DNA from: Candidatus Micrarchaeota archaeon
GTDB taxonomy: Archaea; B1Sed10-29; JAJRYS01
DNA length: 11,683 nt
Reading direction: 5' to 3'
Assembly (NCBI GenBank): GCA_964496415.1
Contig: CAZBZN010000023.1
Coordinates: 1-11,683, forward strand
The notes under the pieces are model-generated. The model was not told the origin of the DNA and did not search any database. It saw nothing but the letters and a program-made list of their open reading frames with translations. How positions within the stretch are numbered: the stretch's first letter is position 1; each line of letters begins with the position of its first letter. The position numbers were made by a program, and so were the translations under genes. This document shows positions 34 through 11,683 of this stretch, piece after piece.

Positions 34-390
34 ATGATGGATGAGATTAGAGAACTGCTTCATAGCTTGGTTCATCAGTCTGACGCATGCAGACTAACTG
101 TCTTAAACAGGCAAAGGATTCATGCTTATTCTATGGTGGGCGGAATCGCGTCACTTGAAGCAAGATTATACTCAAAAGGACTTGGAGAACACACTGAAAT
201 ACTTCAAAAAGCAGTAAACAACTGTCTTTCATGCATTAAGTCAACAGCTGCTACTGGAAAATGCTTTAAATGCTCAAAGGCTTTTCTTAAAGCTTTAGAA
301 AAAGAACTTGCTTCAAAGCCAGCCTCAGAATGGAGTGACCTGATAATAGAAGCAAAGAAAAAACACAAAATAAGAAGAAGGTCAAAATAA
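34..390 (+). CDS. Hypothetical protein with CxxC-x9-CxxC (possible Zn-binding) and basic C-terminal tail
   Basis: 118-aa ORF with a TATA box at leaderless spacing, CLSC...CFKC, and a KKKHKIRRRSK tail. It stops 5 nt from the convergent 838-aa gene. No family recognised. Confidence 0.7.
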   Translation: MMDEIRELLHSLVHQSDACRLTVLNRQRIHAYSMVGGIASLEARLYSKGLGEHTEILQKAVNNCLSCIKSTAATGKCFKCSKAFLKALEKELASKPASEWSDLIIEAKKKHKIRRRSK

Positions 391-395
391 AAGAC

Positions 396-2912
396 TTATT
401 TTATTAGCTCTTCAGCAATTTCTATAGGCAATGCTACTTTTTTTCTATTAAGAATTATCACCTTAAACTTCTTAACTCCTTTTCCACGAGTCCTTGCTTC
501 AAATTCTGCTCCTACAGGAAAATCAGCTGCGTTTCTTTCAGCTGTCTCCATTCTCATTACAGGCATGAACACTTCATCAGGACCTATCTTTTGTTTTTTC
601 ATCAGGACACCATTAATCACAGCATACTGTGAGTCTGTTTGTTTAGCTAACGCTTTCATGCCAAGGAAATAATTAACATCTTTTCCAAGCCCACCTAGCT
701 TGACAGGGTTTTTTCTCAGCAAGTCTCTTCTAAGCTCAGCCCTTGCACTGGCAGACTCAACCAATTTTTCTCTTTCTCTTCCTTCTGCTTTTTCAATCTT
801 CTTTATCATCCTTCTTCTCTCACCTTCATAAGTAGCATACCCAACATGATGGGTTTTAGGCTTTCCTCCAGCTTTCTTAGCTTTAACTCTAAGTTCTTTC
901 TCTCTCTTAGCAGCAATCTCTTCTAATTCTTCTTCACTAAGAAAACCAAAATCAGGCACACTAATTTCTGCTTTAGCAGCCTCTCTTACTGCTGGCTTTT
1001 CTTTCTCTTCAACAGGTTCTAACAAGGATTCTTTGGCAGGTTTTGATACTTCCACGCTAACCTTAGTACCAGTAATAGATCCTGTTGACAGCCCTAATTT
1101 TTTTAACAATTCTATTCCCGGACCGCTTTCAGGAGTTGGTTTTGAAACTGGTTTTGCCTCTTCACTAACCCTGCTTTCAGTGGTTAAGGATACAGCTGGT
1201 AATCTTAGCCTCTCAAGCTCTGCAGATATTTCCTCTTCTTTTCTCCCAGAGTTCTTCATTGCTGTTGCTATGAGTCTTGATAGCATGGTTTTATCTTTTT
1301 CTCTTAAATACCTTGGGCTGGTGAAAAGTGATCCTGTCTTAACCCAGTTAACATAAGCTCTTACAAGCCTTTCCCCTGTAGATCTATCTATTAATCCTTT
1401 TTCAGTAAGAAGTTTTCTTGCTCTTCTAACTTCCTCGTCAGTTGCTGTAAAATCCCTTACATTAATGGCCGGCTTTTTTTCCTCTTCTTTTAGTTTTTTA
1501 ACAGTTCTTGGAACTGGAAGGCCTGCTTCTTCAAATTTTTTCCTTACTTTATACTTCATGGCCCTAAGAGAGCCTTTAGGTGCTCCTTCTATCGTTCCTG
1601 TTAACATTAACTCTAACTGCTCGTCAGTCACTATCACACTCTTTTCAGGATTTTTAAGGTGTTTCATTATTAGTCCTTTATTGTAGTAAGGAGCATGCTT
1701 CTCTTTTTCAATAACCTCAGGAATAGGAAAGCCAGCTTCTTTAAGTTTTTTCCTTAAAGCTATCTTAGAGCTTACAAGACTTCCTTTTTTTATCCCTTTT
1801 ATTTTTCCAGTAGTATACAGCTCGTACTCTTTTTTAGTGAGTAAGATGACTTTTGAAGGATCCTCTGGATGAGTAACAGGGATTTTATCCTTGCTGGTCT
1901 TAAGAAATTCAAAGATTGGAATTCCTGCTTTTTCAAGTTCTTTTCTAAGCTCGCCTCTGCGTTTTCTAATAGTATCCTCTTTTAACCTCTCTACTTTCCC
2001 TTCTTTTTCTAAGAATTCAAACAAGAGAGGGTCAAGGTCTAAGTATTTCCCGTATTCTGGGAAGTAAACTCTTATCTTCTTCTTTTCATGCTCTTCTTTT
2101 AGAAAAGTTGGGATCGGAATTCCTTCTTTTTTAAGTTTTTCCATCAACCGGCATTTCAAGTTAGCTCTTTCTATAGCACTGTAACCTTCAGGATACTTGC
2201 CATACTTGTAAAGCATCCATTGAGTTTCACTAAAAGTAATCTTCTTGCCGGTAACAGGATGTTTCACTATTACTACTCCTTTCTTACTAGATCCTTTTAC
2301 TAAAAAATCAGGCAAAGGAATTCCTTTTTCTTCTAACAGCTTACGTAATTGTGACAAGTATCTTTCACGGGTGGATCTGCTTATTCCTTCTTTTTTCCCT
2401 TGTTTTTCTAAAAATTCAAATAGTACTAAGTCAAGATCCAAGTACTTCCCATACTCCGGAAAGTAAATTCTTATCTTTTTTTCATGTTCTTTCAAGTAAG
2501 TAGGAATCGGCATTCCTTCTTTTTTTAGTTTTTTTATAAGCCTAAATCTTAAGTTAGCTCTTTCTTTAGAGTTCATGCCTTTAGGGTATTCCCCGTACTT
2601 GTATAGCCTCCATTGTGTTTGACTAAAAGCCACTTCTTTACCAGTAACAGGGTGTTTTACAACTACTCTTTTTCCTTCTAAAAACCAGGGTATGGGAATT
2701 CCTTTTTCTTTTAGCATTTCACGTAATTGAGAACGGTAAACTTCACTAGTAGACCCCTTTATCCCTTTTCTTTTCCCTTCCTTTTCTAAGAACTCAAACT
2801 GACGAGGAGTCAACTCTATAGTCTCACCATATTCTGGAAAATGAAGAGGAATTCTAATTTTTTCTCTCTTCCCTTTCTTTTTTGATTTTTCACTACGGCT
2901 TGCTTTAGGCAT
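396..2912 (-). CDS. Large basic hypothetical protein with seven tandem ~62-70 aa modules (putative nucleic-acid-binding array), a low-complexity linker and a beta-rich C-terminal domain
   Basis: 838-aa uninterrupted ORF. Repeated units end in L(K/E)x(E/K/A)G(I/M/F/L)P(I/L/V)P. Synonymous divergence between repeat copies shows it is coding. TATA box at leaderless spacing. Confidence 0.9.
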   Translation of the reverse strand: MPKASRSEKSKKKGKREKIRIPLHFPEYGETIELTPRQFEFLEKEGKRKGIKGSTSEVYRSQLREMLKEKGIPIPWFLEGKRVVVKHPVTGKEVAFSQTQWRLYKYGEYPKGMNSKERANLRFRLIKKLKKEGMPIPTYLKEHEKKIRIYFPEYGKYLDLDLVLFEFLEKQGKKEGISRSTRERYLSQLRKLLEEKGIPLPDFLVKGSSKKGVVIVKHPVTGKKITFSETQWMLYKYGKYPEGYSAIERANLKCRLMEKLKKEGIPIPTFLKEEHEKKKIRVYFPEYGKYLDLDPLLFEFLEKEGKVERLKEDTIRKRRGELRKELEKAGIPIFEFLKTSKDKIPVTHPEDPSKVILLTKKEYELYTTGKIKGIKKGSLVSSKIALRKKLKEAGFPIPEVIEKEKHAPYYNKGLIMKHLKNPEKSVIVTDEQLELMLTGTIEGAPKGSLRAMKYKVRKKFEEAGLPVPRTVKKLKEEEKKPAINVRDFTATDEEVRRARKLLTEKGLIDRSTGERLVRAYVNWVKTGSLFTSPRYLREKDKTMLSRLIATAMKNSGRKEEEISAELERLRLPAVSLTTESRVSEEAKPVSKPTPESGPGIELLKKLGLSTGSITGTKVSVEVSKPAKESLLEPVEEKEKPAVREAAKAEISVPDFGFLSEEELEEIAAKREKELRVKAKKAGGKPKTHHVGYATYEGERRRMIKKIEKAEGREREKLVESASARAELRRDLLRKNPVKLGGLGKDVNYFLGMKALAKQTDSQYAVINGVLMKKQKIGPDEVFMPVMRMETAERNAADFPVGAEFEARTRGKGVKKFKVIILNRKKVALPIEIAEELIK
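1500..2861 (-). repeat. Intragenic tandem repeat array of 7 modules: A 2861-2679, B 2678-2493, A 2492-2301, B 2300-2100, A 2099-1902, C 1901-1710, C 1709-1500
   Basis: A units share FPEYG..(I/L).L....FEFLEK.GK. B units share VKHPVTGK...FS.TQW.LYKYG.YP.G....ERANL. C units share H...P.K....T.....L..TG.I.G..KGSL...K...RKK..EAG.P.P. DNA similarity is visible with a period of about 380-400 nt (e.g. 2430-2480 vs 2031-2080). Confidence 0.9.
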
Positions 2913-2959
2913 TACTTATTTTAAGAAAGATTTCCTTTTATATTTTGTGAGGTGCTGTA
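2913..2959. promoter_or_regulatory. Compact divergent promoter region
   Basis: Minus strand: CAAAA-TATAAAA (TATA 2942-2936), about 24 nt before ATG 2912. Plus strand: TTTTAAGA 2919-2926 followed by SD GAGGTG 2949-2954 before ATG 2960. Confidence 0.55.
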
Positions 2960-4261
2960 ATGAAGAAAGTAATAATAATGGGCGCTGGTGGAAGGGACTT
3001 TCATAACTTCCTGACTTTTTTCAAGCACAAGGAAGAGTATGAGGTGGTGGCTTTTACTGCTGCGCAGGTTCCTGGAATCTCTGGGAGAACGTTTCCTCCT
3101 AGCCTTGCAGGGAAAAAATACCCTGAAGGCATCCCAATATTCAGTGAAGAAAAGCTTGTTGACTTAATCAAACAAGAAAAAGTAGAGTTGGTTAACTTCG
3201 CTTATTCTGATGTTAGCAATGAATATGTTTGTTTTAAGGCTCAGGAGTGCTTGGGTGCTGGAGCTGACTTCCTGCTTCTTGGGCCAGAGTCCACGATGCT
3301 TGAATGCAGCAAGCCTGTGATAGCTGTTACTGGCACGCGTACTGGTGTTGGCAAGAGCACTGTTACTCGTTACGTTGCTAAGCTTGTTAAGAGTCTTGGC
3401 TTGAGAGTGGTTGTTGTAAGACATCCAATGCCTTACGGTGACCTTGAAAAACAAGCAGTGCAGAGGTTTGAGAAGCTTGAAGACCTTGACAGTGCTGAAT
3501 GCACTGTGGAAGAAAGAGAAGAATACGAGCCTTTGATAAGAGAGGGCTTTATCGTCTTTGCAGGCGTTGACTACGAAAAAATCTTTGAAAAAGCGTGTGA
3601 AGAAGCTGACGTGGTCATCTGGGATGGTGGCAATAATGATTTTCCTTTTGTGAAACCTGGTTTTTGGATTACTGTTGCTGATGGTTCAAGGCAAGGGCAT
3701 GAGTTGTCTTATTATCCTAGTGTCGTGAACTTAGCTAACTCTGACTTGGTTTTGATTAACAAGGCAGATGACTTGGAAAAAGTTAAGGTGATAGAGGAAA
3801 ATGTGAGAAAAGTTAACAAGGATTGTAAGATAACTGTTGTAAGGAGTGTTTTAAAGACAAGTGAGAGCATTAAAGGAAAGAAAGTGTTAGTAGTTGAGGA
3901 TGGGCCTAGCTTGACTCATGGTGGGGTGAAGAAAGCAGCTGGTTTGAAGGCTGCTGAAGAACAAGAAGCAATAGTAGTTGATGGAAGAGATTTTGCTGTT
4001 GGAAGCATTAAGCATGCTTTTGAGGAGTATGGGATTGATAAGGCTGTTCCTGCTCTTGGTTATTACGGCAAGCAATTAGAAGACTTGGAGGAGACTATTA
4101 ACAAAGCTGACTGTGACTTGGTGTTAAGTAGTTCTCCTGCCAGTATTGAAAAAATACTTAGCATCAACAAGCCTGTTGTGAGGGTGTCTTATGAGATGGA
4201 GAAGAATGATGAAGTAGATTCTGCAGTGGTTAAGTTTTTAAGCCAGCAGGGTTTGCTTTAG
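2960..4261 (+). CDS. arcE: COG2403 P-loop enzyme; arginine synthetase (ArcE)-like, often annotated as cyclic 2,3-diphosphoglycerate synthetase-like GTPase
   Basis: Motifs GAGGRDFHNF, P-loop GTRTGVGKS, RHPMPYGDL, CTVEEREEYEP, WDGGNND and VEDGPSLTHGG match the family as I recall it from Thermococcus kodakarensis ArcE. SD GAGGTG upstream. The family call is strong; the activity is inferred. Confidence 0.8.
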   Translation: MKKVIIMGAGGRDFHNFLTFFKHKEEYEVVAFTAAQVPGISGRTFPPSLAGKKYPEGIPIFSEEKLVDLIKQEKVELVNFAYSDVSNEYVCFKAQECLGAGADFLLLGPESTMLECSKPVIAVTGTRTGVGKSTVTRYVAKLVKSLGLRVVVVRHPMPYGDLEKQAVQRFEKLEDLDSAECTVEEREEYEPLIREGFIVFAGVDYEKIFEKACEEADVVIWDGGNNDFPFVKPGFWITVADGSRQGHELSYYPSVVNLANSDLVLINKADDLEKVKVIEENVRKVNKDCKITVVRSVLKTSESIKGKKVLVVEDGPSLTHGGVKKAAGLKAAEEQEAIVVDGRDFAVGSIKHAFEEYGIDKAVPALGYYGKQLEDLEETINKADCDLVLSSSPASIEKILSINKPVVRVSYEMEKNDEVDSAVVKFLSQQGLL

Positions 4262-4265
4262 TTTA

Positions 4266-5654
4266 TTATTTCATTGTTTTTTCTATGTCTTTTAAATCAA
4301 AGCAAAATACTCTTTTTCCTTTATATTCTTTTATTTTCTTTTTGAAAGATTTTGCGAATACTGCGTAGTATTCTTTTCTTTCATCATCATGCCATTTTAC
4401 TTTTTCAGATTTTTCTATGAGTTCTTTGATTACTTTGCTTGCGTTTGTTTTTTCTTTCCATTTGCATTCCCCAAAAAGAATTTCTTTCGTGTTTTCGTTT
4501 AGAGCAATTAAGTCTATTTCATTTTCTTTATGCCACCACTTTCCTATTTTTGAAGGCTTGAATGGGAGACTTAGGCTTGGAATTAGTTTCATGCAAAAGT
4601 CTTCAAATGCAATGCTTACGTGTTGGCTGAATTTTTTTTCAATGTCTCTTATTAATTCTTTTCCCAGTCCTTGTTCTATGTAGTCTTTGTTTGGGTATAC
4701 GAATTTGAACCAAAACTCAAAGTATTTATCTTCAAACTTGTATAGTGTATTTCTTGCTTTAAAATTAGATTCTGTTACTGGTTTTACTTTTTTTAGAATG
4801 TGAATGTTGCATAAAGTGTCTATGTATTTTGATACGAGGCTTTTCTCAAGCCCTGTGTTGTTCACTATTAACCCTATCCTATGGTTTCCTTCTGCTATTG
4901 ATTTCAGTATTGCGAAGTAGTTTCTTGGTTCTCTTAGTTCTTCTCTTAAGAGAAATTCAGCTTCTTCATACAAGAAGCTTCCTTTTGAGAATACTTGTTC
5001 TATCATGTTTTTTGTTAATGGTTTTTCTGTTTGGAATTTGTTAAGGTATAATGGTATCATGTCTGTGATTGAGTATACTTTTATCAGGTCTTCTGTTTTG
5101 TATTTTGGCAGAAAGGATCTTAAGTATTTTACATTTATTGGAGTTACTTTCCATTGTCCTGTTCTTCTGCCGTACAAGGGGCTTTTGTAGCTAAGAACTT
5201 CTGTTTCCATCATGCTTATGCTTGACCCAAGTAAGATTAGCATTATTTTTTTCTTTGACAAGTGGTTATCCCATGCTTTTTGGAAAAGTGAAGGGATTGC
5301 TTTGTTCCCTTCAATCAAGTAAGGGAACTCGTCAATTATTAGTATAATTCTCCTATTTGCTTTTTTAGCGAATTCTGAAAGTAAATCAACCCAGTCTTTA
5401 AATGATGCTTTTTTGAAAAGCTCATCTTTGAAGAATTCTCCTATTTTCTCTTTTAACTCGTTTAAGTTTTCTTTATCTGGTCTCTTGTCAGCTAAGAAGT
5501 ATATGAATTGCTTTTTTTCTGAGAATTTTAAAACTAGTTCTGTTTTTCCAATCCTTCTTCTTCCATAAAGAACTATTAATTCTGGCTTTTTCGAAGAATA
5601 CTTTTTTTCTAGGAAAGCCAGTTCATCTCTTCTATTTATAAATTGTTGAATCAT
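4266..5654 (-). CDS. Archaeal AAA+ ATPase (COG1672, ATPase_2) with winged helix and C-terminal DUF234 / PD-(D/E)xK-like domain
   Basis: N-terminal FINRRDEL, Walker A YGRRRIGKT, Walker B LIIDEFPYL, SPLYGRRT, and C-terminal WW...EIDLIAL...LFGECKW. Confidence 0.9.
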   Translation of the reverse strand: MIQQFINRRDELAFLEKKYSSKKPELIVLYGRRRIGKTELVLKFSEKKQFIYFLADKRPDKENLNELKEKIGEFFKDELFKKASFKDWVDLLSEFAKKANRRIILIIDEFPYLIEGNKAIPSLFQKAWDNHLSKKKIMLILLGSSISMMETEVLSYKSPLYGRRTGQWKVTPINVKYLRSFLPKYKTEDLIKVYSITDMIPLYLNKFQTEKPLTKNMIEQVFSKGSFLYEEAEFLLREELREPRNYFAILKSIAEGNHRIGLIVNNTGLEKSLVSKYIDTLCNIHILKKVKPVTESNFKARNTLYKFEDKYFEFWFKFVYPNKDYIEQGLGKELIRDIEKKFSQHVSIAFEDFCMKLIPSLSLPFKPSKIGKWWHKENEIDLIALNENTKEILFGECKWKEKTNASKVIKELIEKSEKVKWHDDERKEYYAVFAKSFKKKIKEYKGKRVFCFDLKDIEKTMK

Positions 5655-5754: not shown

Positions 5755-6162
5755 ATGGATTTTTTTGAAGAAATGAGAAGAATGCAAAAAGAAATAGAAA
5801 GGATGATGCAGGCTGCTTACTCTGGTTTTGACTTCAGGCAGCCAGTGATTGAAATAATCGACAAGGGAAAGAACTTGGTAGTGATAGCAGAGCTTCCTGG
5901 AGTTGATAAGAAGGACATAAGCTTGTCTTGTGACGGTTTTGTTTTGGACATTGAAGCAAGAACCAGCAAGAAAGAAGAGAAAAAAAGAAAAGGATTTTAT
6001 TACAGTGAAAGAAAGGCTTCAGTGTTTAAGAGAAGCATAAGCTTGCCTGAAGAAGTTGATTTTTCAAAAGCAAAAGCTTCTTTCAAGAATGGGGTTCTTG
6101 AAATAGTGCTTCCTAAGAAAACCGCTAAAGCTAGGAAAAAGCAAAAGATAAAAATCCAGTAA
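5755..6162 (+). CDS. hsp20: Small heat shock protein (Hsp20/alpha-crystallin family)
   Basis: AELPGVDKKDI, FKRSISLPEEVD, AKASFKNGVLEIVLPK and a C-terminal IxI motif (IKI). Confidence 0.93.
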   Translation: MDFFEEMRRMQKEIERMMQAAYSGFDFRQPVIEIIDKGKNLVVIAELPGVDKKDISLSCDGFVLDIEARTSKKEEKKRKGFYYSERKASVFKRSISLPEEVDFSKAKASFKNGVLEIVLPKKTAKARKKQKIKIQ

Positions 6163-6794: not shown

Positions 6795-7214
6795 TCAAGC
6801 TATTGGCAGTGGAGGGTATTCCTGATATTCTCTTACCTTTTTTATTGTTTTCTCAGCTTTCTTAATAAGCTTTGACAATCTCTTCCTTAGTTTTAAAAAC
6901 CTTTCAATAGTTTTTTTCTTTTCTTTAATCACTTTAGTAGGTGACTTTTTGCTCACGTAAGCTTGTTTAAGTCCTTCAACAAGCTCGGAAAATTCCAAGT
7001 ACAATGAATTAAATTCAAGGATAAGCAAGTCACTTTCAATAACCAAGCCGTTTATTTCTTTTCTCATTTCAGGAGGATAATTAGAAGACAACGCATAATA
7101 TTTTAAAATAATATCTCTTGATTGAGTTAAAGCATCATAAGCCTCGTTAATTGCTTGAATGCTTACTCCTATTTTTTTCAAAATGAACAACTCAACTTCC
7201 TGCTCAGCTTTCAT
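6795..7214 (-). CDS. Hypothetical all-alpha (helical bundle) protein, basic C-terminal helix
   Basis: 139 aa. ATG overlaps the end of the HIT gene by 11 nt, with SD-like GAGGCGA upstream. Heptad pattern. Confidence 0.8.
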   Translation of the reverse strand: MKAEQEVELFILKKIGVSIQAINEAYDALTQSRDIILKYYALSSNYPPEMRKEINGLVIESDLLILEFNSLYLEFSELVEGLKQAYVSKKSPTKVIKEKKKTIERFLKLRKRLSKLIKKAEKTIKKVREYQEYPPLPIA

Positions 7215-7599
7215 TATTTTCGCCTCTTAAAAGAGCTCCGAACTTTTTCAAGTACTCTTCGCTTGCTTTCTCACCTGGCTTTATGTTCAAGTATCCTTTT
7301 TTCACAGGGTAAAGTTTTACATGCACGTGAGGTACTTCAAACCCCTCAATGACAAGACAAGTCCTCGTAGGCTTTATTTTTTCATCAAGAATGTTTGCTA
7401 CTTTCTTAGCTGAATCCATTAGCTTACGATAATCCTCGTCAGGCATTGTGAAAATGTACTCGTAATGCTTTTTTGGAATGACTAAAACTTGTCCTTCACA
7501 AGCTGGGTAAAGGTCAAGAAAAGCTACTGAAAACTCATCCTCATAAATTATTTCTGCTGGGATTTCCTTGTTCACTATCTTGCAGAAAATGCATTCCAT
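7204..7599 (-). CDS. HIT (histidine triad) family protein, variant motif HVHVK
   Basis: N-terminal CIFC, AFLDxxP..GQVLVIPKKH, and GFEVPHVHVKLYP at the triad position. TATA TTTTTATA (7630-7623) at leaderless spacing. Confidence 0.9.
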   Translation of the reverse strand: MECIFCKIVNKEIPAEIIYEDEFSVAFLDLYPACEGQVLVIPKKHYEYIFTMPDEDYRKLMDSAKKVANILDEKIKPTRTCLVIEGFEVPHVHVKLYPVKKGYLNIKPGEKASEEYLKKFGALLRGENNES

Positions 7600-7642: not shown

Positions 7643-7882
7643 TCATTTTCCTACTATTATTATGTCTTTTACTGACTTTACTCTTTTGTACATTATGCTT
7701 TTCTTTTGAAGGAGTTTTGCTAGTTCTTCTTTGTTAGGTGAAAGCATCCTTAAGGGTTCTGTGGTGATTCTGACGACTTCCCCTGTTTCCATGTTTATTA
7801 TCAAATCATAAGCTTTTCCAATGTATTCTCCTTTATCATCATAAATGCTTAACCCATAAATCCTTGAAACTGGAATGCTCAT
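7643..7882 (-). CDS. PRC-barrel domain protein (possible CdpB-like cell division protein)
   Basis: VSRIYGLSIYDDKGEYIGKAYDLIINMETGEV...IMYKRVKSVKDIIIV is a typical single PRC barrel. SD GGTGAGG and TATA TTTAAAAA (7923-7916) upstream. Confidence 0.85.
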   Translation of the reverse strand: MSIPVSRIYGLSIYDDKGEYIGKAYDLIINMETGEVVRITTEPLRMLSPNKEELAKLLQKKSIMYKRVKSVKDIIIVGK

Positions 7883-7996
7883 AACCTCACCAAACTAAGG
7901 TAAAGCAATAATGGTTTTTAAACTTTTCTTTAACTCAGTTTGTTTTGTGAAAGTTTTAAATAAGTGTTGGTTGTTAATTCAACAAAGGGGATTACT

Positions 7997-8518
7997 ATGG
8001 ATTTTTGGAAGAAAAGAAAGAAGAAACCAGAAGATCCTTTTGAAGAAATCAACAGGATGATGAATGAGTTCATGAAAAACTTGATGGACAGTGATTTTTC
8101 AAAACTTTTTGATGAAGAATTGTTTGAAAAGCTAGAGCCAGGAAAGCCTGCTGTTTATGGTTTTTCAATAAAAGTAGGGCCTGAGGGAAAACTTAAGATT
8201 GACAAGTTTGGTAATATTGAGCCAAAAGAAGAAGAAATTGAAATCCGTGACGAGAGAGAACCATTAGTGGACGTCATTGAAAAAGACAAAGAAATAACAA
8301 TTCTTGCAGAGCTTCCTGGAGTAAGCAAGAAAGACATTGACATTCATGTTACTAAAGATAAAGAGCACTTGGTTATCAGGGTTCCTGGAAAGTTCTACAA
8401 GAAACTAAAGCTTCCTGCAAAGGTTTTTTCAAAGCTTGGGAAAGCACATTACAAGAACGGAGTGCTTGAAGTTAACTTGAAGAAAAAACAATCCCGTGGC
8501 AGGATAAAAGTTGAATGA
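7997..8518 (+). CDS. hsp20: Archaeal-type small heat shock protein Hsp20
   Basis: Archaeal Hsp20 motif PAVYGFSIKVGPEGK...FGN, plus REPLVDV, AELPGV, YKNGVLEV and C-terminal IKV. Start moved from GTG 7964 to ATG 7997, which follows a GGGGAT SD. Confidence 0.9.
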   Translation: MDFWKKRKKKPEDPFEEINRMMNEFMKNLMDSDFSKLFDEELFEKLEPGKPAVYGFSIKVGPEGKLKIDKFGNIEPKEEEIEIRDEREPLVDVIEKDKEITILAELPGVSKKDIDIHVTKDKEHLVIRVPGKFYKKLKLPAKVFSKLGKAHYKNGVLEVNLKKKQSRGRIKVE

Positions 8519-8528
8519 AGGGATTTTC

Positions 8529-8891
8529 TTGGAATGTGAGGTCTGCGGAAGAAAGACAAAAGACCTTAAGCTTGTGATGATTGAAGGAGCAGCAGTTTAC
8601 GCTTGCCCTTCATGTGCTGCTGGAAAACTTGAAGCAAGACAACCGATAGTCAGAGTTCGTAAAGTGACTAAAAAGCCAGTACAAGAAGAGGAAGATAAGC
8701 TGTTGATAATTGATTATGGTAAAGTGATTCAAAAAGCAGCTCAAGCAAAAGGACTTACAGTAGAAGAGCTTGCTAAAAGAGTAGGTGAAAGCGAGTCAAC
8801 CATGCGGAAGATAATCCATGAAAAACTAACACCTACTGAAAAAACAGCTGCCAAACTTGAAAAACTGCTTGGAATAAAGCTCTATGAGTGA
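8529..8891 (+). CDS. mbf1: Archaeal multiprotein bridging factor 1 (Zn-ribbon + Cro-like HTH)
   Basis: CEVCG...IEGA...CPSC zinc ribbon, then DYGKVIQKA...GLTVEELAKRVGESES...KLEKLLGIKL. Likely start TTG 8529 (MECEVCG) after AAGGGAT; the track start is 8511. Confidence 0.88.
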   Translation: MECEVCGRKTKDLKLVMIEGAAVYACPSCAAGKLEARQPIVRVRKVTKKPVQEEEDKLLIIDYGKVIQKAAQAKGLTVEELAKRVGESESTMRKIIHEKLTPTEKTAAKLEKLLGIKLYE

Positions 8892-10123
8892 ATTACATGC
8901 TGTTCTGGATTATTCTCTTAATGTTCTTAGTAGTCATTCCTCTTATTTTTTTCAAATTTAAAGGCTTTGACGTTGAAGGAGTATTCGTGTTATGGCGTAC
9001 TAAGAAATGCCTTGGGTTGATTAAAAAACTCTCAGCTTATAGGTTTTTTACCATGCTTGCTGATTTAGGGATAGTTTTTTCCTTTGGGTTGCTGGGAGCC
9101 TTGTTTTTCTCAAAGAAAAAACCACTTTACTCAATAAAACTTTACTTAACATTCCTTGGGTTAGGGACTTTCTTGGCTTTTCCAGGAATCATAAACTTTA
9201 TTGGTTCAAGAAGCTTAGTTGTTTTCTCCCTTTACTTTTTTGGTTTCGCAGGATTCTCTGTTTATTATTTAGCTGCTGGAGCATGGTTGATAATCATGCA
9301 GTACTTGCAAGGTTCAACTCCTGTCCCAATGATCCAGCCTATAATCCCAGGAGTAAGCATTCCAGGAGCTCCTGTGCAAAAAATCCCAATAGAAGCTTTG
9401 GTTGGATTAGTCATCCTAGTGATAGTGCATGAGTTTTCTCATGCAATAGTTGCTTTAAGGGAAAAAATAAAAGTAAAATCAGTTGGGTTAGTTACTGTTG
9501 GCTTGATTCCAATAGGAGCATTCGCAGAGCCAGATGAAAAACAAATGAAAAAAACCAAGAAGGAGAAAAGAATGAGAGTGTATGCAGCTGGGTCTATGGC
9601 TAATTTTTCCTTAGCATTACTCTTAATACCAGTGCTTGCAGGTTTTCAATTATTCATTCTTCCAGGAGTTTCTGAAAGCTCTTATTTAAGAGTTCTTGAA
9701 GTTCATGAGGGGTCTCCTGCTTTCAAAGCAGGAATAAAACCAGGCATGATAATCTATAACAAAGAAATAGGATACTTGAAAAAGAACCCGTTTCAGGAAG
9801 TTACTTTAGTAACTGACAAAGGAAACTTTACTGTAAAAGCAAATGCTTCTGGAATGATAGGAATAATCTTCACCCAAGAAGTCAGGCAATGGTCAAAAGA
9901 ATGGCTTGAACTAGAAGCTTTCATAATCCTAAACTGGGCTTACTTGTTGAACCTTTTTGTTGGAATGTTTAACTGTCTTCCATTAGGAATGCTTGATGGG
10001 GCAAGAATTCTTGAAGATTTAATCCCAGGGAAAAAACCAACAAGAAAGAAAATAGTCAAAGCAACAAGCTTAATCATACTCATTCTAATAGTGATAGGAG
10101 TAATCCCTTATTTCATAAAATGA
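8888..10123 (+). CDS. Site-2 protease (M50 intramembrane metalloprotease) with PDZ-like insert
   Basis: HEFSH zinc motif, GAFAEPDE, AAGSMAN, NCLPLGMLDG, multiple hydrophobic segments and PDZ-like VHEGSPAFKAGIKPG. The start overlaps the mbf1 stop (GTGA). Confidence 0.92.
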   Translation: MNYMLFWIILLMFLVVIPLIFFKFKGFDVEGVFVLWRTKKCLGLIKKLSAYRFFTMLADLGIVFSFGLLGALFFSKKKPLYSIKLYLTFLGLGTFLAFPGIINFIGSRSLVVFSLYFFGFAGFSVYYLAAGAWLIIMQYLQGSTPVPMIQPIIPGVSIPGAPVQKIPIEALVGLVILVIVHEFSHAIVALREKIKVKSVGLVTVGLIPIGAFAEPDEKQMKKTKKEKRMRVYAAGSMANFSLALLLIPVLAGFQLFILPGVSESSYLRVLEVHEGSPAFKAGIKPGMIIYNKEIGYLKKNPFQEVTLVTDKGNFTVKANASGMIGIIFTQEVRQWSKEWLELEAFIILNWAYLLNLFVGMFNCLPLGMLDGARILEDLIPGKKPTRKKIVKATSLIILILIVIGVIPYFIK

Positions 10124-10138
10124 AAGAATAAGAATCAA

Positions 10139-10166
10139 CAGGCGAGGTGACGCCTGCAGGTTTTTT
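10139..10166 (+). terminator. Putative terminator hairpin between the convergent S2P and ftsZ genes
   Basis: CAGGCG-aggtga-CGCCTG (6-bp GC-rich stem) followed by CAGG and T6. Confidence 0.5.
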
Positions 10167-11236
10167 CAAATAAAAGAGATTCCAAGGGTTTCATCAAGAG
10201 CCTTTGCTTTTGACCCTGCTGCAAGACCCTCTGTCATTGGCCCTTTAATGTGAGCGCTTTGCACTCCAGTCATTATAGCTATTACTTCCACTTTGCCCTC
10301 GTATTCTGGGACAATCCTAGCACCCCAAATCACTGTAGCTGAAGGGTCTATTGCTTCTGTTAGCCTCTCACCAATCTCATTAGCTTCTCCAAGAGTCAAG
10401 TCAGTACCACCAGTGATGTGAATCAAGCAACCCTTTGCTCCAGTGTAATCAACATCCAAGAGGCTGTTCCTAAGAGTGTCTTCTACTACTTCTTCTACTC
10501 TCTGATGTCCTCTTGCTTCTCCAACGCTTATTACTGAAACTCCACCTTGAGTCATTATGCTTCTTACGTCAGCGTAATCCAAGTTAATGAGTGACGGGGT
10601 TGTTATTGTTTCAGTTATTCCCTTGACAGCTCTTGAAATAACTTCGTCAGCTACGCTGAAAGCCTGTTCTATTGGCAGGTTAGGAACTAACTCAACCAAC
10701 CTGTTGTTGTCAATTATTATCACAGTATCAGCTACCTTCCTCAATTTTTGAATTCCTTCATCTGCTTTAAGAAGTCTTGCTCTTTCAAGCTTGAAAGGAT
10801 AAGTAACCATTGCTATTACTATTGCTCCTTGTTCTTTAGCAATGTCAGCAATTATAGGAGCAGCTCCTGTTCCAGTTCCTCCACCCATTCCAGCAGTTAT
10901 AAAAACCATGTCAGCTCCATCAAGAGCTTGTGAAAGAGTAGCTCTTGAAACTTCAGCTGCTTTTGCTCCTACTTCAGGATAGCCTCCTGCTCCTAACCCT
11001 CTTGTAACACTTTGACCAATAAGCAGTTTTTTAACAGCATCATGAATCAAAGTCAAGTGTTGTTTGTCAGTGTTAACAGCAATCAACTCTGCGCCAGAAA
11101 CTCCTAGTCTTGCCATCCTGTTTAAAGTGTTGTTCCCTGCTCCACCTACTCCAACAACAACGATTCTTGGTCCCTCGGCTAAGCCGTGTATTGGTTTTTG
11201 TTCAGATGTTATAGCATTCCTAACTATTGACTCCAC
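10166..11236 (-). CDS. ftsZ: Cell division protein FtsZ (FtsZ2 type)
   Basis: [30 protein letters not shown] and T7 loop [18 protein letters not shown] and PFKLERAR resemble haloarchaeal FtsZ2 as I recall it. Likely start GTG 11236, 5 nt after SD GAGGTGA; the track start is 11245. Confidence 0.95.
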
Positions 11237-11270
11237 AAGCGTCACCTCATTCTAAATTGAAGCCATTCTA

Positions 11271-11370: not shown

Positions 11371-11649
11371 GGGCAGGAGATAGGCTGGGGGAGTAGCAGT
11401 CCCCTGTAACTCCAAACCTGCTTAGGGAGAGCCGAAGCTGTCAGGGCGTTGTCTTTCTCTTAGCATCATGCGCTTCCTGGCAACAATGACCCTCTGTCCT
11501 AATGGACTCAGCTTGCTGGGAACCTGGTCAGGGCGGGAACGCAGCAGCCATAACCAGTAAGCTGGGTGTCTTTAGGGTAGCAGAGGAGAGAAGCCAGGAA
11601 GAAAAGCAGGTGCTAAGGGAGACAGCCACCTGACAGCGTTCTCCTGCCC
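11371..11649 (+). ncRNA. ffs: Archaeal signal recognition particle (7S) RNA
   Basis: Helix 1 GGGCAGGAGA (11371-80) / TCTCCTGCCC (11640-49). Alu domain with GGGG/CCCC, TGTAAC, CTCC/GGAG and complementary loops AGCAG/CTGCT. Long helix 5 (GCTGTCAGG/CCTGACAGC etc.). Helix 8 GGTCAGG-GCG-GGAA-CGC-AGCAGCC. Confidence 0.95.
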
Positions 11650-11683
11650 ACAAACCGCGTGCGGTTTACGGACAGGGGATTTC

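Follow-up and report, generated by a model that had tools for sequence, protein, structure and literature searches.

A seven-unit array of shortened HTH-like modules in an Iainarchaeota protein: a candidate DNA binder

The P0001 gene lies on the minus strand of the 11,683-nucleotide stretch of DNA analysed here (the window), in the genome of a small-genome Iainarchaeota (DPANN) archaeon. The gene is an insertion within a conserved operon, between a 118-aa ORF and a P-loop protein gene. The locus contains the following features.

34..390, plus strand: conserved ORF of 118 aa that flanks the insertion on the left; adjoins the 5' side of the P-loop gene in genomes G001, G003 and G004
396..2912, minus strand: P0001 gene, an ORF of 838 aa (pI 9.8) whose GC3 and codon use match the rest of the genome
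399..962, minus strand: C-terminal region, aa 651–838, for which searches for families, relatives and folds gave no match
963..1187, minus strand: Ser/Pro/Glu/Lys-rich probable linker by sequence, aa 576–650
1188..1508, minus strand: basic region behind the array, aa 469–575, probably helical; no family match
1509..1718, minus strand: U7, type C, aa 399–468, net charge +3
1719..1910, minus strand: U6, type C, aa 335–398, net charge +8
1911..2108, minus strand: U5, type A (helix start diverged), aa 269–334, net charge +2
2109..2309, minus strand: U4, type B, aa 202–268, net charge +8
2310..2501, minus strand: U3, type A, aa 138–201, net charge +3
2502..2687, minus strand: U2, type B, aa 76–137, net charge +10
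2688..2870, minus strand: U1, type A, aa 15–75, net charge +4
2871..2912, minus strand: Lys/Arg-rich N-terminal tail, residues 1–14 (net +7 over residues 2–16)
2913..2959, no strand: AT-rich divergent intergenic stretch of 47 bp, common to P0001 and the downstream P-loop gene, with a putative TATA-like element by eye
2960..4261, plus strand: conserved 433-aa P-loop protein gene, right flank of the insertion

A mobile-element origin of P0001 is unsupported by its composition (GC3 of 0.28 against 0.30 ± 0.05; codon index at the 15th percentile), and no long terminal repeat was found at the gene ends among the repeats listed. A second assembly, L011, is 99.96% identical, with 2 of 4512 bases differing, and contigs from another study (run X2) span nearly the whole gene with no joint inside it. 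The array is therefore not an assembly artefact. No long hydrophobic segment was found in P0001. The first-pass annotation of this DNA had omitted both the basic tail at the N-terminus and the C-terminal 370 aa.

The seven tandem units occupy P0001 residues 15–468 (nucleotides 2870 down to 1509) and contain 61, 62, 64, 67, 66, 64 and 70 residues from U1 to U7. Each unit ends in a G-h-P-h-P/F motif (residues 75, 137, 201, 268, 334, 398 and 468). BLAST identities are 48–63% among U1, U3 and U5, 69% between U2 and U4, and 45% between U6 and U7 (51 columns), and thus the order A-B-A-B-A-C-C holds; type C is the least cohesive of the three, U6 also sharing 42% identity with U1. Aligned to itself, P0001 gives an off-diagonal match with an E-value of 2.6e-50, and a self-match of this kind (E ≤ 1e-4 with low-complexity filtering) is observed in only 2 of the 784 ORFs of the genome. 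The array reported in the first-pass annotation is thus real, with units of 61–70 rather than 62–70 residues, and all seven helix-start motifs that it quoted were located in P0001. Its assignment of a β-hairpin to every unit also stands, but the hairpin of U7 reads HLKNP, not HPEDP.

In the AlphaFold2 model, the unit consists of a β-hairpin, a helix, a Gly loop of 8–9 residues, a long helix, the G-h-P-h-P cap and a short helix. The layout previously read from the sequence agrees with the model up to the cap but overlooked the short third helix that follows each cap. The two-unit model has a pLDDT of 76.5 and a pTM of 0.47 for the pair; pTM values range from 0.47 to 0.52, and both AlphaFold2 models were built on 4–7 paralogous rows. 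The best fold match of the two-unit model is the DNA-binding domain of ArlR (6IS4; Z 6.1, rmsd 2.2 Å, 58 aligned residues), a middling score relative to the tool's own level of about 8 for a meaningful match. The ArlR overlay covers chain range 135–211 and skips about 19 residues. The second match is AdeR (5X5L; Z 5.3). Among the best 50 fold rows, we take 20 to be OmpR/PhoB-type, 7 LuxR-type and 6 sigma region 4, with labels drawn only in part from titles. The LuxR-type rows score Z 3.3–3.9 over 39–48 residues, and cullin/APC protein-binding domains are also among the 50. A Foldseek search of the PDB and viral structures gave no match at E ≤ 0.001, and the ESM Atlas structures gave no significant family for aa 138–268 and 650–838 (best TM 0.46 and 0.34).

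The sequence signal follows the same family. By hhalign, the seven-unit profile aligns collinearly over 52 columns with one built from 22 OmpR domains, at a score of 22.6 and a probability of 27.6%. This score exceeds those of all 150 column shuffles (maximum 16.6) and all 150 block shuffles (maximum 21.2). The alignment requires an 18-residue gap at helix 2 and the transactivation loop; once the OmpR profile had been stripped, post hoc, of its strand-helix-2 segment, the probability became 87.6%, and P0001 ranked first of the 784 ORFs with the edited profile (E 0.0055; next 0.53). The Pfam model of the family (PF00486, Trans_reg_C) found nothing at E ≤ 1 anywhere in the genome, though controls matched, and none was listed for single units. 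Of the OmpR- and LuxR-type resemblances proposed earlier, the OmpR-type one is retained, but the LuxR/GerE HTH (PF00196, 24 members) fits much worse, at 2.5%. Two further families were rejected: the excisionase/MerR-like HTH_17 (PF12728, 13 members) reached 0.8% over 18 columns, and LEM/HeH/SAP matches covered 13–15 residues only (HeH, 14 bits against a cut-off of 28.9; Ish1, 15.3 against 26.6).

The unit resembles the OmpR/PhoB domains (PF00486; ArlR, AdeR) in the hairpin ahead of helix 1, the start motif of helix 1 and the long helix with its L-R-K-x-L end, and the predicted overlay, of middling strength, gives hairpin, helix 1 and recognition helix the same relative placement. In contrast to OmpR, the modelled unit contains the 8–9-residue Gly loop in place of helix 2 and the transactivation loop, and a proline cap and short helix in place of the C-terminal β-hairpin wing. 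It also lacks the four-stranded sheet and a Pfam score, and seven copies are carried on one chain. Unlike OmpR/PhoB response regulators, P0001 contains no N-terminal receiver domain, as judged from the absence of a Pfam or NCBIfam match and the presence of only 14 residues before U1. The unit is thus predicted to match an OmpR-type winged helix minus helix 2 and the wing.

One homologue was confirmed by reciprocal search. The protein L245:1375-2400 of G001, from a neighbouring genus of the same family, matches P0001 with an E-value of 6e-7 (9e-10 for its unit 3 alone) and contains a basic N-terminal tail and at least three units; its sequence is truncated at the end of the contig. Unit 1 of this protein is a full HTH by sequence, and the other two are short; the last helix of unit 1 aligns with the long helix of U1 (1 of 1000 shuffles was as good). 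The earlier view that the units are HTH-derived, with a loop in place of the middle helix, is accordingly supported by the fold search, the profile alignment and this homologue, in which a full unit stands beside two short ones. The unit is confirmed in two proteins, from 2 of the 31 genomes, and this rarity limits its significance. As had been suspected from the sequence, the family is an unrecognised one: Pfam, PHROGs, NCBIfam and a sequence search of the PDB gave no significant family for P0001. No homologue was found in a word search of 5.8 billion sequences (about 8000 candidates scored per search) or among genome contigs, viral contigs, plasmids and phages, and no relatives were obtained with whole P0001 (0 of 40) or its C-terminal 189 aa (0 of 30) as the query. 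An HMM search of 1.84 billion sequences returned P0001 and P0002 alone; P0002 was rejected as a homologue, given that its match is limited to the last 31 columns, without the hairpin and without a Pfam match. Other candidates, none of them confirmed, were a single unit of G004 (L216:14286-14786; hhalign 4.5%, not confirmed by reciprocal search), an 806-aa array of G009 (L244:5612-8029; reciprocal search negative), a G006 match composed mostly of hairpin and helix 1, and a G020 match (E 0.01; 8.4 bits rescored) that appears by eye to be a radical-SAM-type protein and was dropped. The widened profile A8 matched 0 of 121 genomes in each of two other archaeal phyla, in genome sets without a positive control. 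A8 aligns with profile A7 at 80.9%, but over 13 columns only and with both sets chosen by earlier matches, and A7 matched only weak wHTH rows in the PDB (Fur, E 0.025; DrrD, E 0.06). No description of P0001 or its module was found in a search of freely accessible papers.

The repeats are old. Between units, synonymous sites have reached saturation (pS 0.62–0.77) and dN is 0.17–0.64, and purifying selection acts between units. The helix start diverges to the same degree as the scaffold (pN 0.14 against 0.16 in U2/U4; 0.27 against 0.24 in U1/U3). No copy-number variant of the array was observed among the four runs examined; between genera, the unit number varies from seven in P0001 to at least three in the G001 homologue. 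Saturated synonymous sites in a conserved protein therefore indicate ancient repeats in a fixed multi-domain array without a TALE-like, fast-changing code. The zinc-finger-like logic of an expandable array, proposed earlier, finds no support, given the same saturation, the helix starts held within U2/U4 and U1/U3, and the lack of a copy-number variant in the four runs. Like TALE and C2H2 zinc-finger arrays, P0001 strings modules in tandem along a single chain, in which the scaffold is conserved while the putative reading residues vary. In contrast to those arrays, P0001 contains no Cys/His ligand set, and its units are 21–69% identical with about nine variable positions rather than two to four; compared with the near-identical TALE repeats, the other units are 21–61% identical to U3.

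The variability of the array is concentrated at the start of the long helix. Nine-column windows at this position are the least conserved of 49, with an identity of 0.13–0.15 against 0.40 before and 0.55 after it (next lowest region, 0.17), in agreement with the earlier claim of a variable recognition-helix start on a conserved scaffold. In PhoB, bases are read by Thr194, Val197 and Arg201 (PMC3973317). The equivalent columns of U1–U7 contain T/V/Q, E/N/R, T/R/Q, E/N/R, T/K/E, S/S/A and S/A/K, and a helical wheel, whose moment direction ranged from −32 to 86 degrees, turns the last two columns away from the side that carries Leu. The long helices hold 4–8 K/R per 17 residues, but the net charge of type A units comes close to neutrality (+2 to +4). 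Any repeat protein varies on its exposed helix face, which counts against inferring DNA reading from this pattern.

We give an even chance to the reading that P0001 is a lineage-specific multi-module DNA binder, with seven old, fixed, shortened HTH modules on one extended dsDNA site. One protein with seven modules would likely grip a long stretch of DNA. The long helix of each module would act as the recognition helix in the major groove; a single stripped module would bind weakly, and seven on linkers of 7–15 residues would add up. The duplicated A-B pair may read a directly repeated sub-site and U5–U7 others, and the 370-aa C-terminal part may be an effector or oligomerisation end. The loss of helix 2 and the wing takes away contacts used by OmpR domains and counts against a DNA binder. 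As a candidate target, no CRISPR or iteron array was found by TRF and k-mer counts in the 91%-complete assembly, and repeats often stay unassembled; sigma-70 promoter and terminator scans were at chance level. Archaeal Cbp1 offers a precedent: its three HTH domains, which are duplicates, line up on a single DNA repeat (PMC10883916). Cbp1/Cbp2 and P0001 are both archaeal, with duplicated HTH domains on short linkers aligned, in Cbp1/Cbp2, on one DNA site. However, Cbp1/Cbp2 contain two or three full HTHs, whereas P0001 contains seven truncated units and the 370-aa tail, and its 91%-complete assembly yielded no CRISPR array.

The same HTH-derived fold could instead clamp nucleic acids irrespective of sequence, as a chromatin, nucleoid or RNA-coating protein whose helix start varies because it is unconstrained, which we consider rather unlikely. 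The high pI, a net charge per residue of 0.076 (a level that 14 of 246 large ORFs attain), K/R at the column equivalent to PhoB 199 in six of seven units, and the absence of helix 2 and the wing from the model are consistent with a clamp, but within U2/U4 and U1/U3 the helix start is constrained no less than the scaffold despite saturated dS, and a general chromatin protein would be expected phylum-wide rather than in 2 of 31 genomes. It is unlikely that the units are RRE/PqqD- or cullin-like peptide- or protein-binding modules and that the array scaffolds several partners or a repeated one. RRE domains consist of three strands and three helices, whereas the modelled unit has two strands, stands in a tandem array and carries a strongly basic helix; moreover, the sequence signal follows OmpR, and the 13 window proteins scanned contain no RiPP enzyme by Pfam and no RiPP maturase or precursor. 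The case for such modules comes from the RRE/PqqD domains (PF05402) among the fold rows (6 of 50; Z 3.4–4.9), which, as in the modelled unit, place strands ahead of helices much as a winged helix does, and match the B unit best (model range 64–125). The top-scoring ones, at 4.4–4.9 (6JX3, 5WGG, 5V1U), lie about 1–2 below the best match. An exposed β-hairpin edge could pair with a peptide strand, and conserved exposed or semi-exposed aromatics are found on the A and B units.

Export of P0001 into a host archaeon as a DNA-binding effector, with the basic N-terminal tail as part of a targeting signal of orphan genes in the lineage, is very improbable. Host-dependent life is expected for DPANN archaea, and basic tails are also present on the G001 homologue and other repeat orphans. 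An N-terminal net charge of at least +5 (first 15 residues, ORFs of at least 150 aa, threshold picked after looking) is found in 12 of 85 unshared proteins of the same genome and in 19 of 412 shared ones (p 0.003); for G004 the counts are 10 of 59 and 16 of 336 (p 0.002). Internal windows show no such difference. The post hoc threshold weakens this count, C-termini of the own genome follow the same trend, basic tails equally fit plain nucleic-acid binding or relaxed selection, and the literature search found no description of such a signal. An array that serves as a structural spacer or filament-like repeat without ligand reading, with a convergent HTH resemblance, is extremely unlikely: collinear sequence and structure matches converge on the same family, the G001 homologue retains a full HTH unit, and the pair pTM of 0.47 gives no sign of rigid stacking, against which stand the middling fold scores and a cap motif (amphipathic helix, Gly, hydrophobic, Pro) that also fits the unrelated-looking P0002, over 31 columns only.

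If P0001 is the multi-module DNA binder favoured here, it would provide a 60-residue, metal-free, helix-2-less HTH module that functions in arrays, would imply that the canonical turn and scaffold helix are dispensable once modules are concatenated, and would offer a new scaffold for testing swappable specificity. A broader version, decidedly doubtful, would make this minimal two-helix module (a winged helix minus helix 2 and the wing) the element of a lineage-specific reader toolkit of Iainarchaeota, with a modular sub-site code in the helix starts and possibly with TALE-like effectors delivered to the host. To our knowledge, regulation and host interactions of Iainarchaeota are barely known. 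Orphan arrays of the phylum, the G009 array and C20:228-1370 of the same genome as P0001, likewise combine a basic N-terminal tail with tandem hairpin-HTH or HTH-like units under no family name; unlike P0001, they retain helix 2, and reciprocal searches with P0001 were negative. Together with P0001, they suggest that Iainarchaeota harbour a pool of HTH arrays with basic tails and no name as yet.

P0001, an 838-residue protein encoded on the minus strand (396–2912), has a pI of 9.8 and contains no long hydrophobic segment. It is organized as follows:

14 residues, ahead of U1: basic N-terminal tail
Residues 15–468: array of seven units, U1–U7 (61, 62, 64, 67, 66, 64 and 70 residues)
Residues 469–575, downstream of the array: basic region
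Between the basic region 469–575 and the C-terminal region: low-complexity linker
188 residues: C-terminal region, which had no match in any search made

The B units and U6 are strongly basic (+8 to +10), and the A units are mildly basic (+2 to +4). The linkers from the cap (the G-hydrophobic-P-hydrophobic-P motif that ends each unit) to the next hairpin span 7–15 residues and include a short third helix.

The A-B-A-B-A-C-C order read in the first-pass annotation was borne out by within-class identities of 48–63% for type A (U1, U3 and U5), 69% for type B (U2 and U4) and 45% for type C (U6 and U7), the loosest class. Nucleotide similarity between copies does not exceed 73–78% across long stretches, and Tandem Repeats Finder detected no repeat in the array DNA. 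Comparison of the paralogous units shows saturation at synonymous positions (pS 0.62–0.77) and a dN of 0.17–0.64; the array is thus old and under purifying selection. On this sequence pattern, a TALE-like, recombination-homogenised array does not fit, and the annotated expandable repeat with zinc-finger-array-like logic was not supported. Twelve base differences appear in the read tables for this gene, mostly from low-depth contigs and all 3′ of the array (7 silent and 5 residue-changing); this count omits two 3-base gaps near 2395, found in runs with little coverage of the gene. A second assembly (L011) differs from the window at 2 of 4512 bases and carries one silent change within the array. 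Contigs of a hydrothermal-vent metagenome from a separate study span nearly all of the gene without an internal joint.

AlphaFold2 models of U3 (7 alignment rows, pLDDT 74.5) and U3-U4 (4 alignment rows, pLDDT 76.5, pTM 0.47) both predict a unit composed of a β-hairpin, an 8–9-residue helix, an 8–9-residue loop, a 17–18-residue helix, the cap and a short helix. Foldseek returned no match to the unit models at E ≤ 0.001. In a wide structural search, the ArlR DNA-binding domain was the top match for the single-unit model (Z 4.9) and the two-unit model (Z 6.1, rmsd 2.2 Å, 58 aligned residues), and Z values under 8 may reflect merely a common arrangement. The 50 structural rows for the two-unit model comprise 20 OmpR/PhoB-type, 7 LuxR-type, 6 sigma region 4, 6 RRE/PqqD and 11 other domains, by family labels taken in part from entry titles.

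Comparison profiles were built from 22 OmpR, 24 LuxR and 13 HTH_17 domains of five bacterial genomes, leaving out a truncated OmpR match and two matches to LuxR. Against the OmpR profile, the unit profile reached a probability of 27.6%, in a collinear alignment of 52 columns broken by a gap of 18 residues where helix 2 lies; the probability was 2.5% with LuxR and 0.8% with HTH_17. The OmpR score exceeded all 150 column shuffles and all 150 block shuffles, and the signal derives mostly from the A units, which reach 17% by themselves compared with 1.4% for B and 2.1% for C. Post hoc removal of the helix-2 segment from the OmpR profile raised the probability to 87.6% and ranked P0001 first among 784 ORFs. 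Pfam PF00486 does not match P0001, which is therefore not a member of that family. The gap at helix 2 and the predicted loop agree with the annotated HTH-like unit whose middle helix is replaced by a loop; of the two likenesses annotated, OmpR/PhoB fits far better than LuxR.

Windows across the start of the long helix are the least conserved among 49 (0.13–0.15), in line with its annotated variability. Thr194, Val197 and Arg201 are named in PMC3973317 among the base-reading residues of PhoB. Their equivalents in the OmpR profile alignment lie 8, 5 and 1 residues ahead of a conserved Leu and are T/V/Q, E/N/R, T/R/Q, E/N/R, T/K/E, S/S/A and S/A/K in the seven units. In U2/U4 and U1/U3, conservation of the helix start equals that of the remainder of the unit, and in U5 and U6/U7 the start is strongly diverged (pN 0.65–0.68 versus 0.23–0.39). 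The pattern would fit a duplicated A-B reading pair with three re-tuned modules, but the comparison over nine codons has little power, and exposed helices drift in any case.

Large sequence searches returned only P0001 itself and P0002, a 561-residue unnamed JGI/IMG protein. The repeat units of P0002 finish in a similar amphipathic helix-Gly-hydrophobic-Pro cap, and Pfam assigned it no family. Its match covers the cap half only; it was rejected as a homologue and is probably unrelated. When the 31 genomes of the phylum were searched one by one with the profile, five weak matches emerged outside the source genome, one of which (G004) had seeded the query. One of the five is a confirmed homologue, a 342-residue protein of G001, a genome of the same taxonomic family; it is cut by its contig end and finds P0001 reciprocally (E 6e-7; third unit alone, E 9e-10). 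By eye, it contains one full hairpin-HTH followed by two short forms. In tests with 1000 shuffles each, its unit 1 is related to its unit 2 (equalled by 0 shuffles) and to U1 (equalled by 1); against unit 3, 825 shuffles did as well, and the similarity lacks significance. The last helix of unit 1 falls on the long helix of U1, the best sign that the latter acts as the recognition helix. Some alignments place the long helix on helix 2 of the full HTH, a rival register made possible by the Gly-hydrophobic ending that helix 2 shares in HTHs of this kind. An 806-residue G009 protein (L244:5612–8029, minus strand) has a basic N-terminal tail and seven hairpin-HTH units in full form; it gave only a weak Penicillinase_R match in Pfam, belongs to a cluster of two unnamed members and showed no homology to P0001 in reciprocal searches. 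Copy number, which the annotation proposed to compare across archaeal MAGs, differs between P0001 (seven units) and the truncated G001 homologue (at least three). The widened unit profile matched 0 of 121 and 0 of 121 genomes of two other phyla, sets with no positive control.

The most likely reading of P0001, with an even chance, is a DNA binder of several modules: its stripped HTH units, each weak, would cooperate along one long site, and the C-terminal part would serve as an effector. The groove insertion, specificity, target and role in the cell that this reading entails are inferred. The account of Cbp1 in PMC10883916, with three HTHs acting together, offers a precedent, and the P0001 units would similarly share one long site. 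Tandem HTH arrays as such are already known; seven repeats of a module lacking both helix 2 and the wing did not turn up in the libraries and publications searched. So basic a protein might instead coat DNA or RNA non-specifically, which we consider unlikely, and an RRE-like peptide scaffold, the class of six structural rows beside 20 of OmpR/PhoB type, is slightly less likely still. A host-directed effector is improbable, and a ligand-free spacer is the most improbable reading. For the DNA-binding model, the 91%-complete assembly yielded no CRISPR or iteron array that could serve as target; its abundant repeats are GC-rich elements only. One of these, with 20-mers present 6–7 times in the genome, lies at the window end.

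The source genome is archaeal (687 kb). The nearest records to the FtsZ of the window are from Candidatus Iainarchaeum (70–79%), which identifies the host as an Iainarchaeota (DPANN) archaeon. The P0001 gene has base and codon use native to this genome and the following neighbours:

34–390, plus strand: 118-residue ORF of an unannotated family (6 of 31 phylum genomes), just 5′ of the P-loop gene in all five relatives that were compared
2960–4261, plus strand: 433-residue P-loop protein (25 of 31 phylum genomes)
4266–5654, minus strand: ATPase_2/DUF234 gene, a second insertion
5755–6162, 7964–8518, 8511–10123, 7643–7882 and 10166–11245: ordinary neighbours (two Hsp20, MBF1-like HTH, M50 peptidase, PRC barrel, FtsZ)
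7204–7599: HIT protein, an ordinary neighbour
11373–11647: archaeal SRP RNA, with the GC-rich element immediately after (region 11373–11683)

The P-loop protein matched no family of Pfam or NCBIfam above the cut-off; it may resemble cyclic 2,3-diphosphoglycerate synthetase-like proteins. Its gene shares a 47-bp divergent stretch with P0001. The 118-residue ORF and P-loop gene adjoin in G001, G003 and G004 (gaps of 6–31 bp) and are separated by one or two genes in G009 and G013. Because the flanks are adjacent in relatives, the P0001 gene, which lies on the opposite strand, is an insertion specific to this lineage; the ATPase_2/DUF234 gene is a second insertion, since the G004 P-loop gene directly adjoins Hsp20. 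The region by the 118-residue ORF seems often to take up orphan genes. Different basic-tailed orphans stand beside this ORF in G009 (L187:5445–6383) and G013 (L188:4816–5643), similar only in their hydrophobic C-terminal 28-residue ends.

P0001 falls in a statistical class of proteins that relatives do not share and whose N-termini are basic. By a threshold picked after looking at the data, strongly basic N-termini occur in 12 of 85 unshared versus 19 of 412 shared proteins in the source genome and in 10 of 59 versus 16 of 336 in about 575 kb of G004. Unshared proteins have such N-termini about three times as often in these two genomes, with no difference in internal windows; in the source genome their C-termini are also more often strongly basic. 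These proteins are possibly an unrecognised targeting-signal or nucleic-acid-binder class. Two adjoining basic-tailed repeat proteins of the source genome gave no Pfam family above cut-off:

C20:228–1370 (L186): 381 residues, four HTH-like repeats of ~58 residues
C20:1503–2357 (L186): 285 residues, about seven repeats of ~28 residues

The G009 array profile matches the 381-residue protein (E 0.0013).
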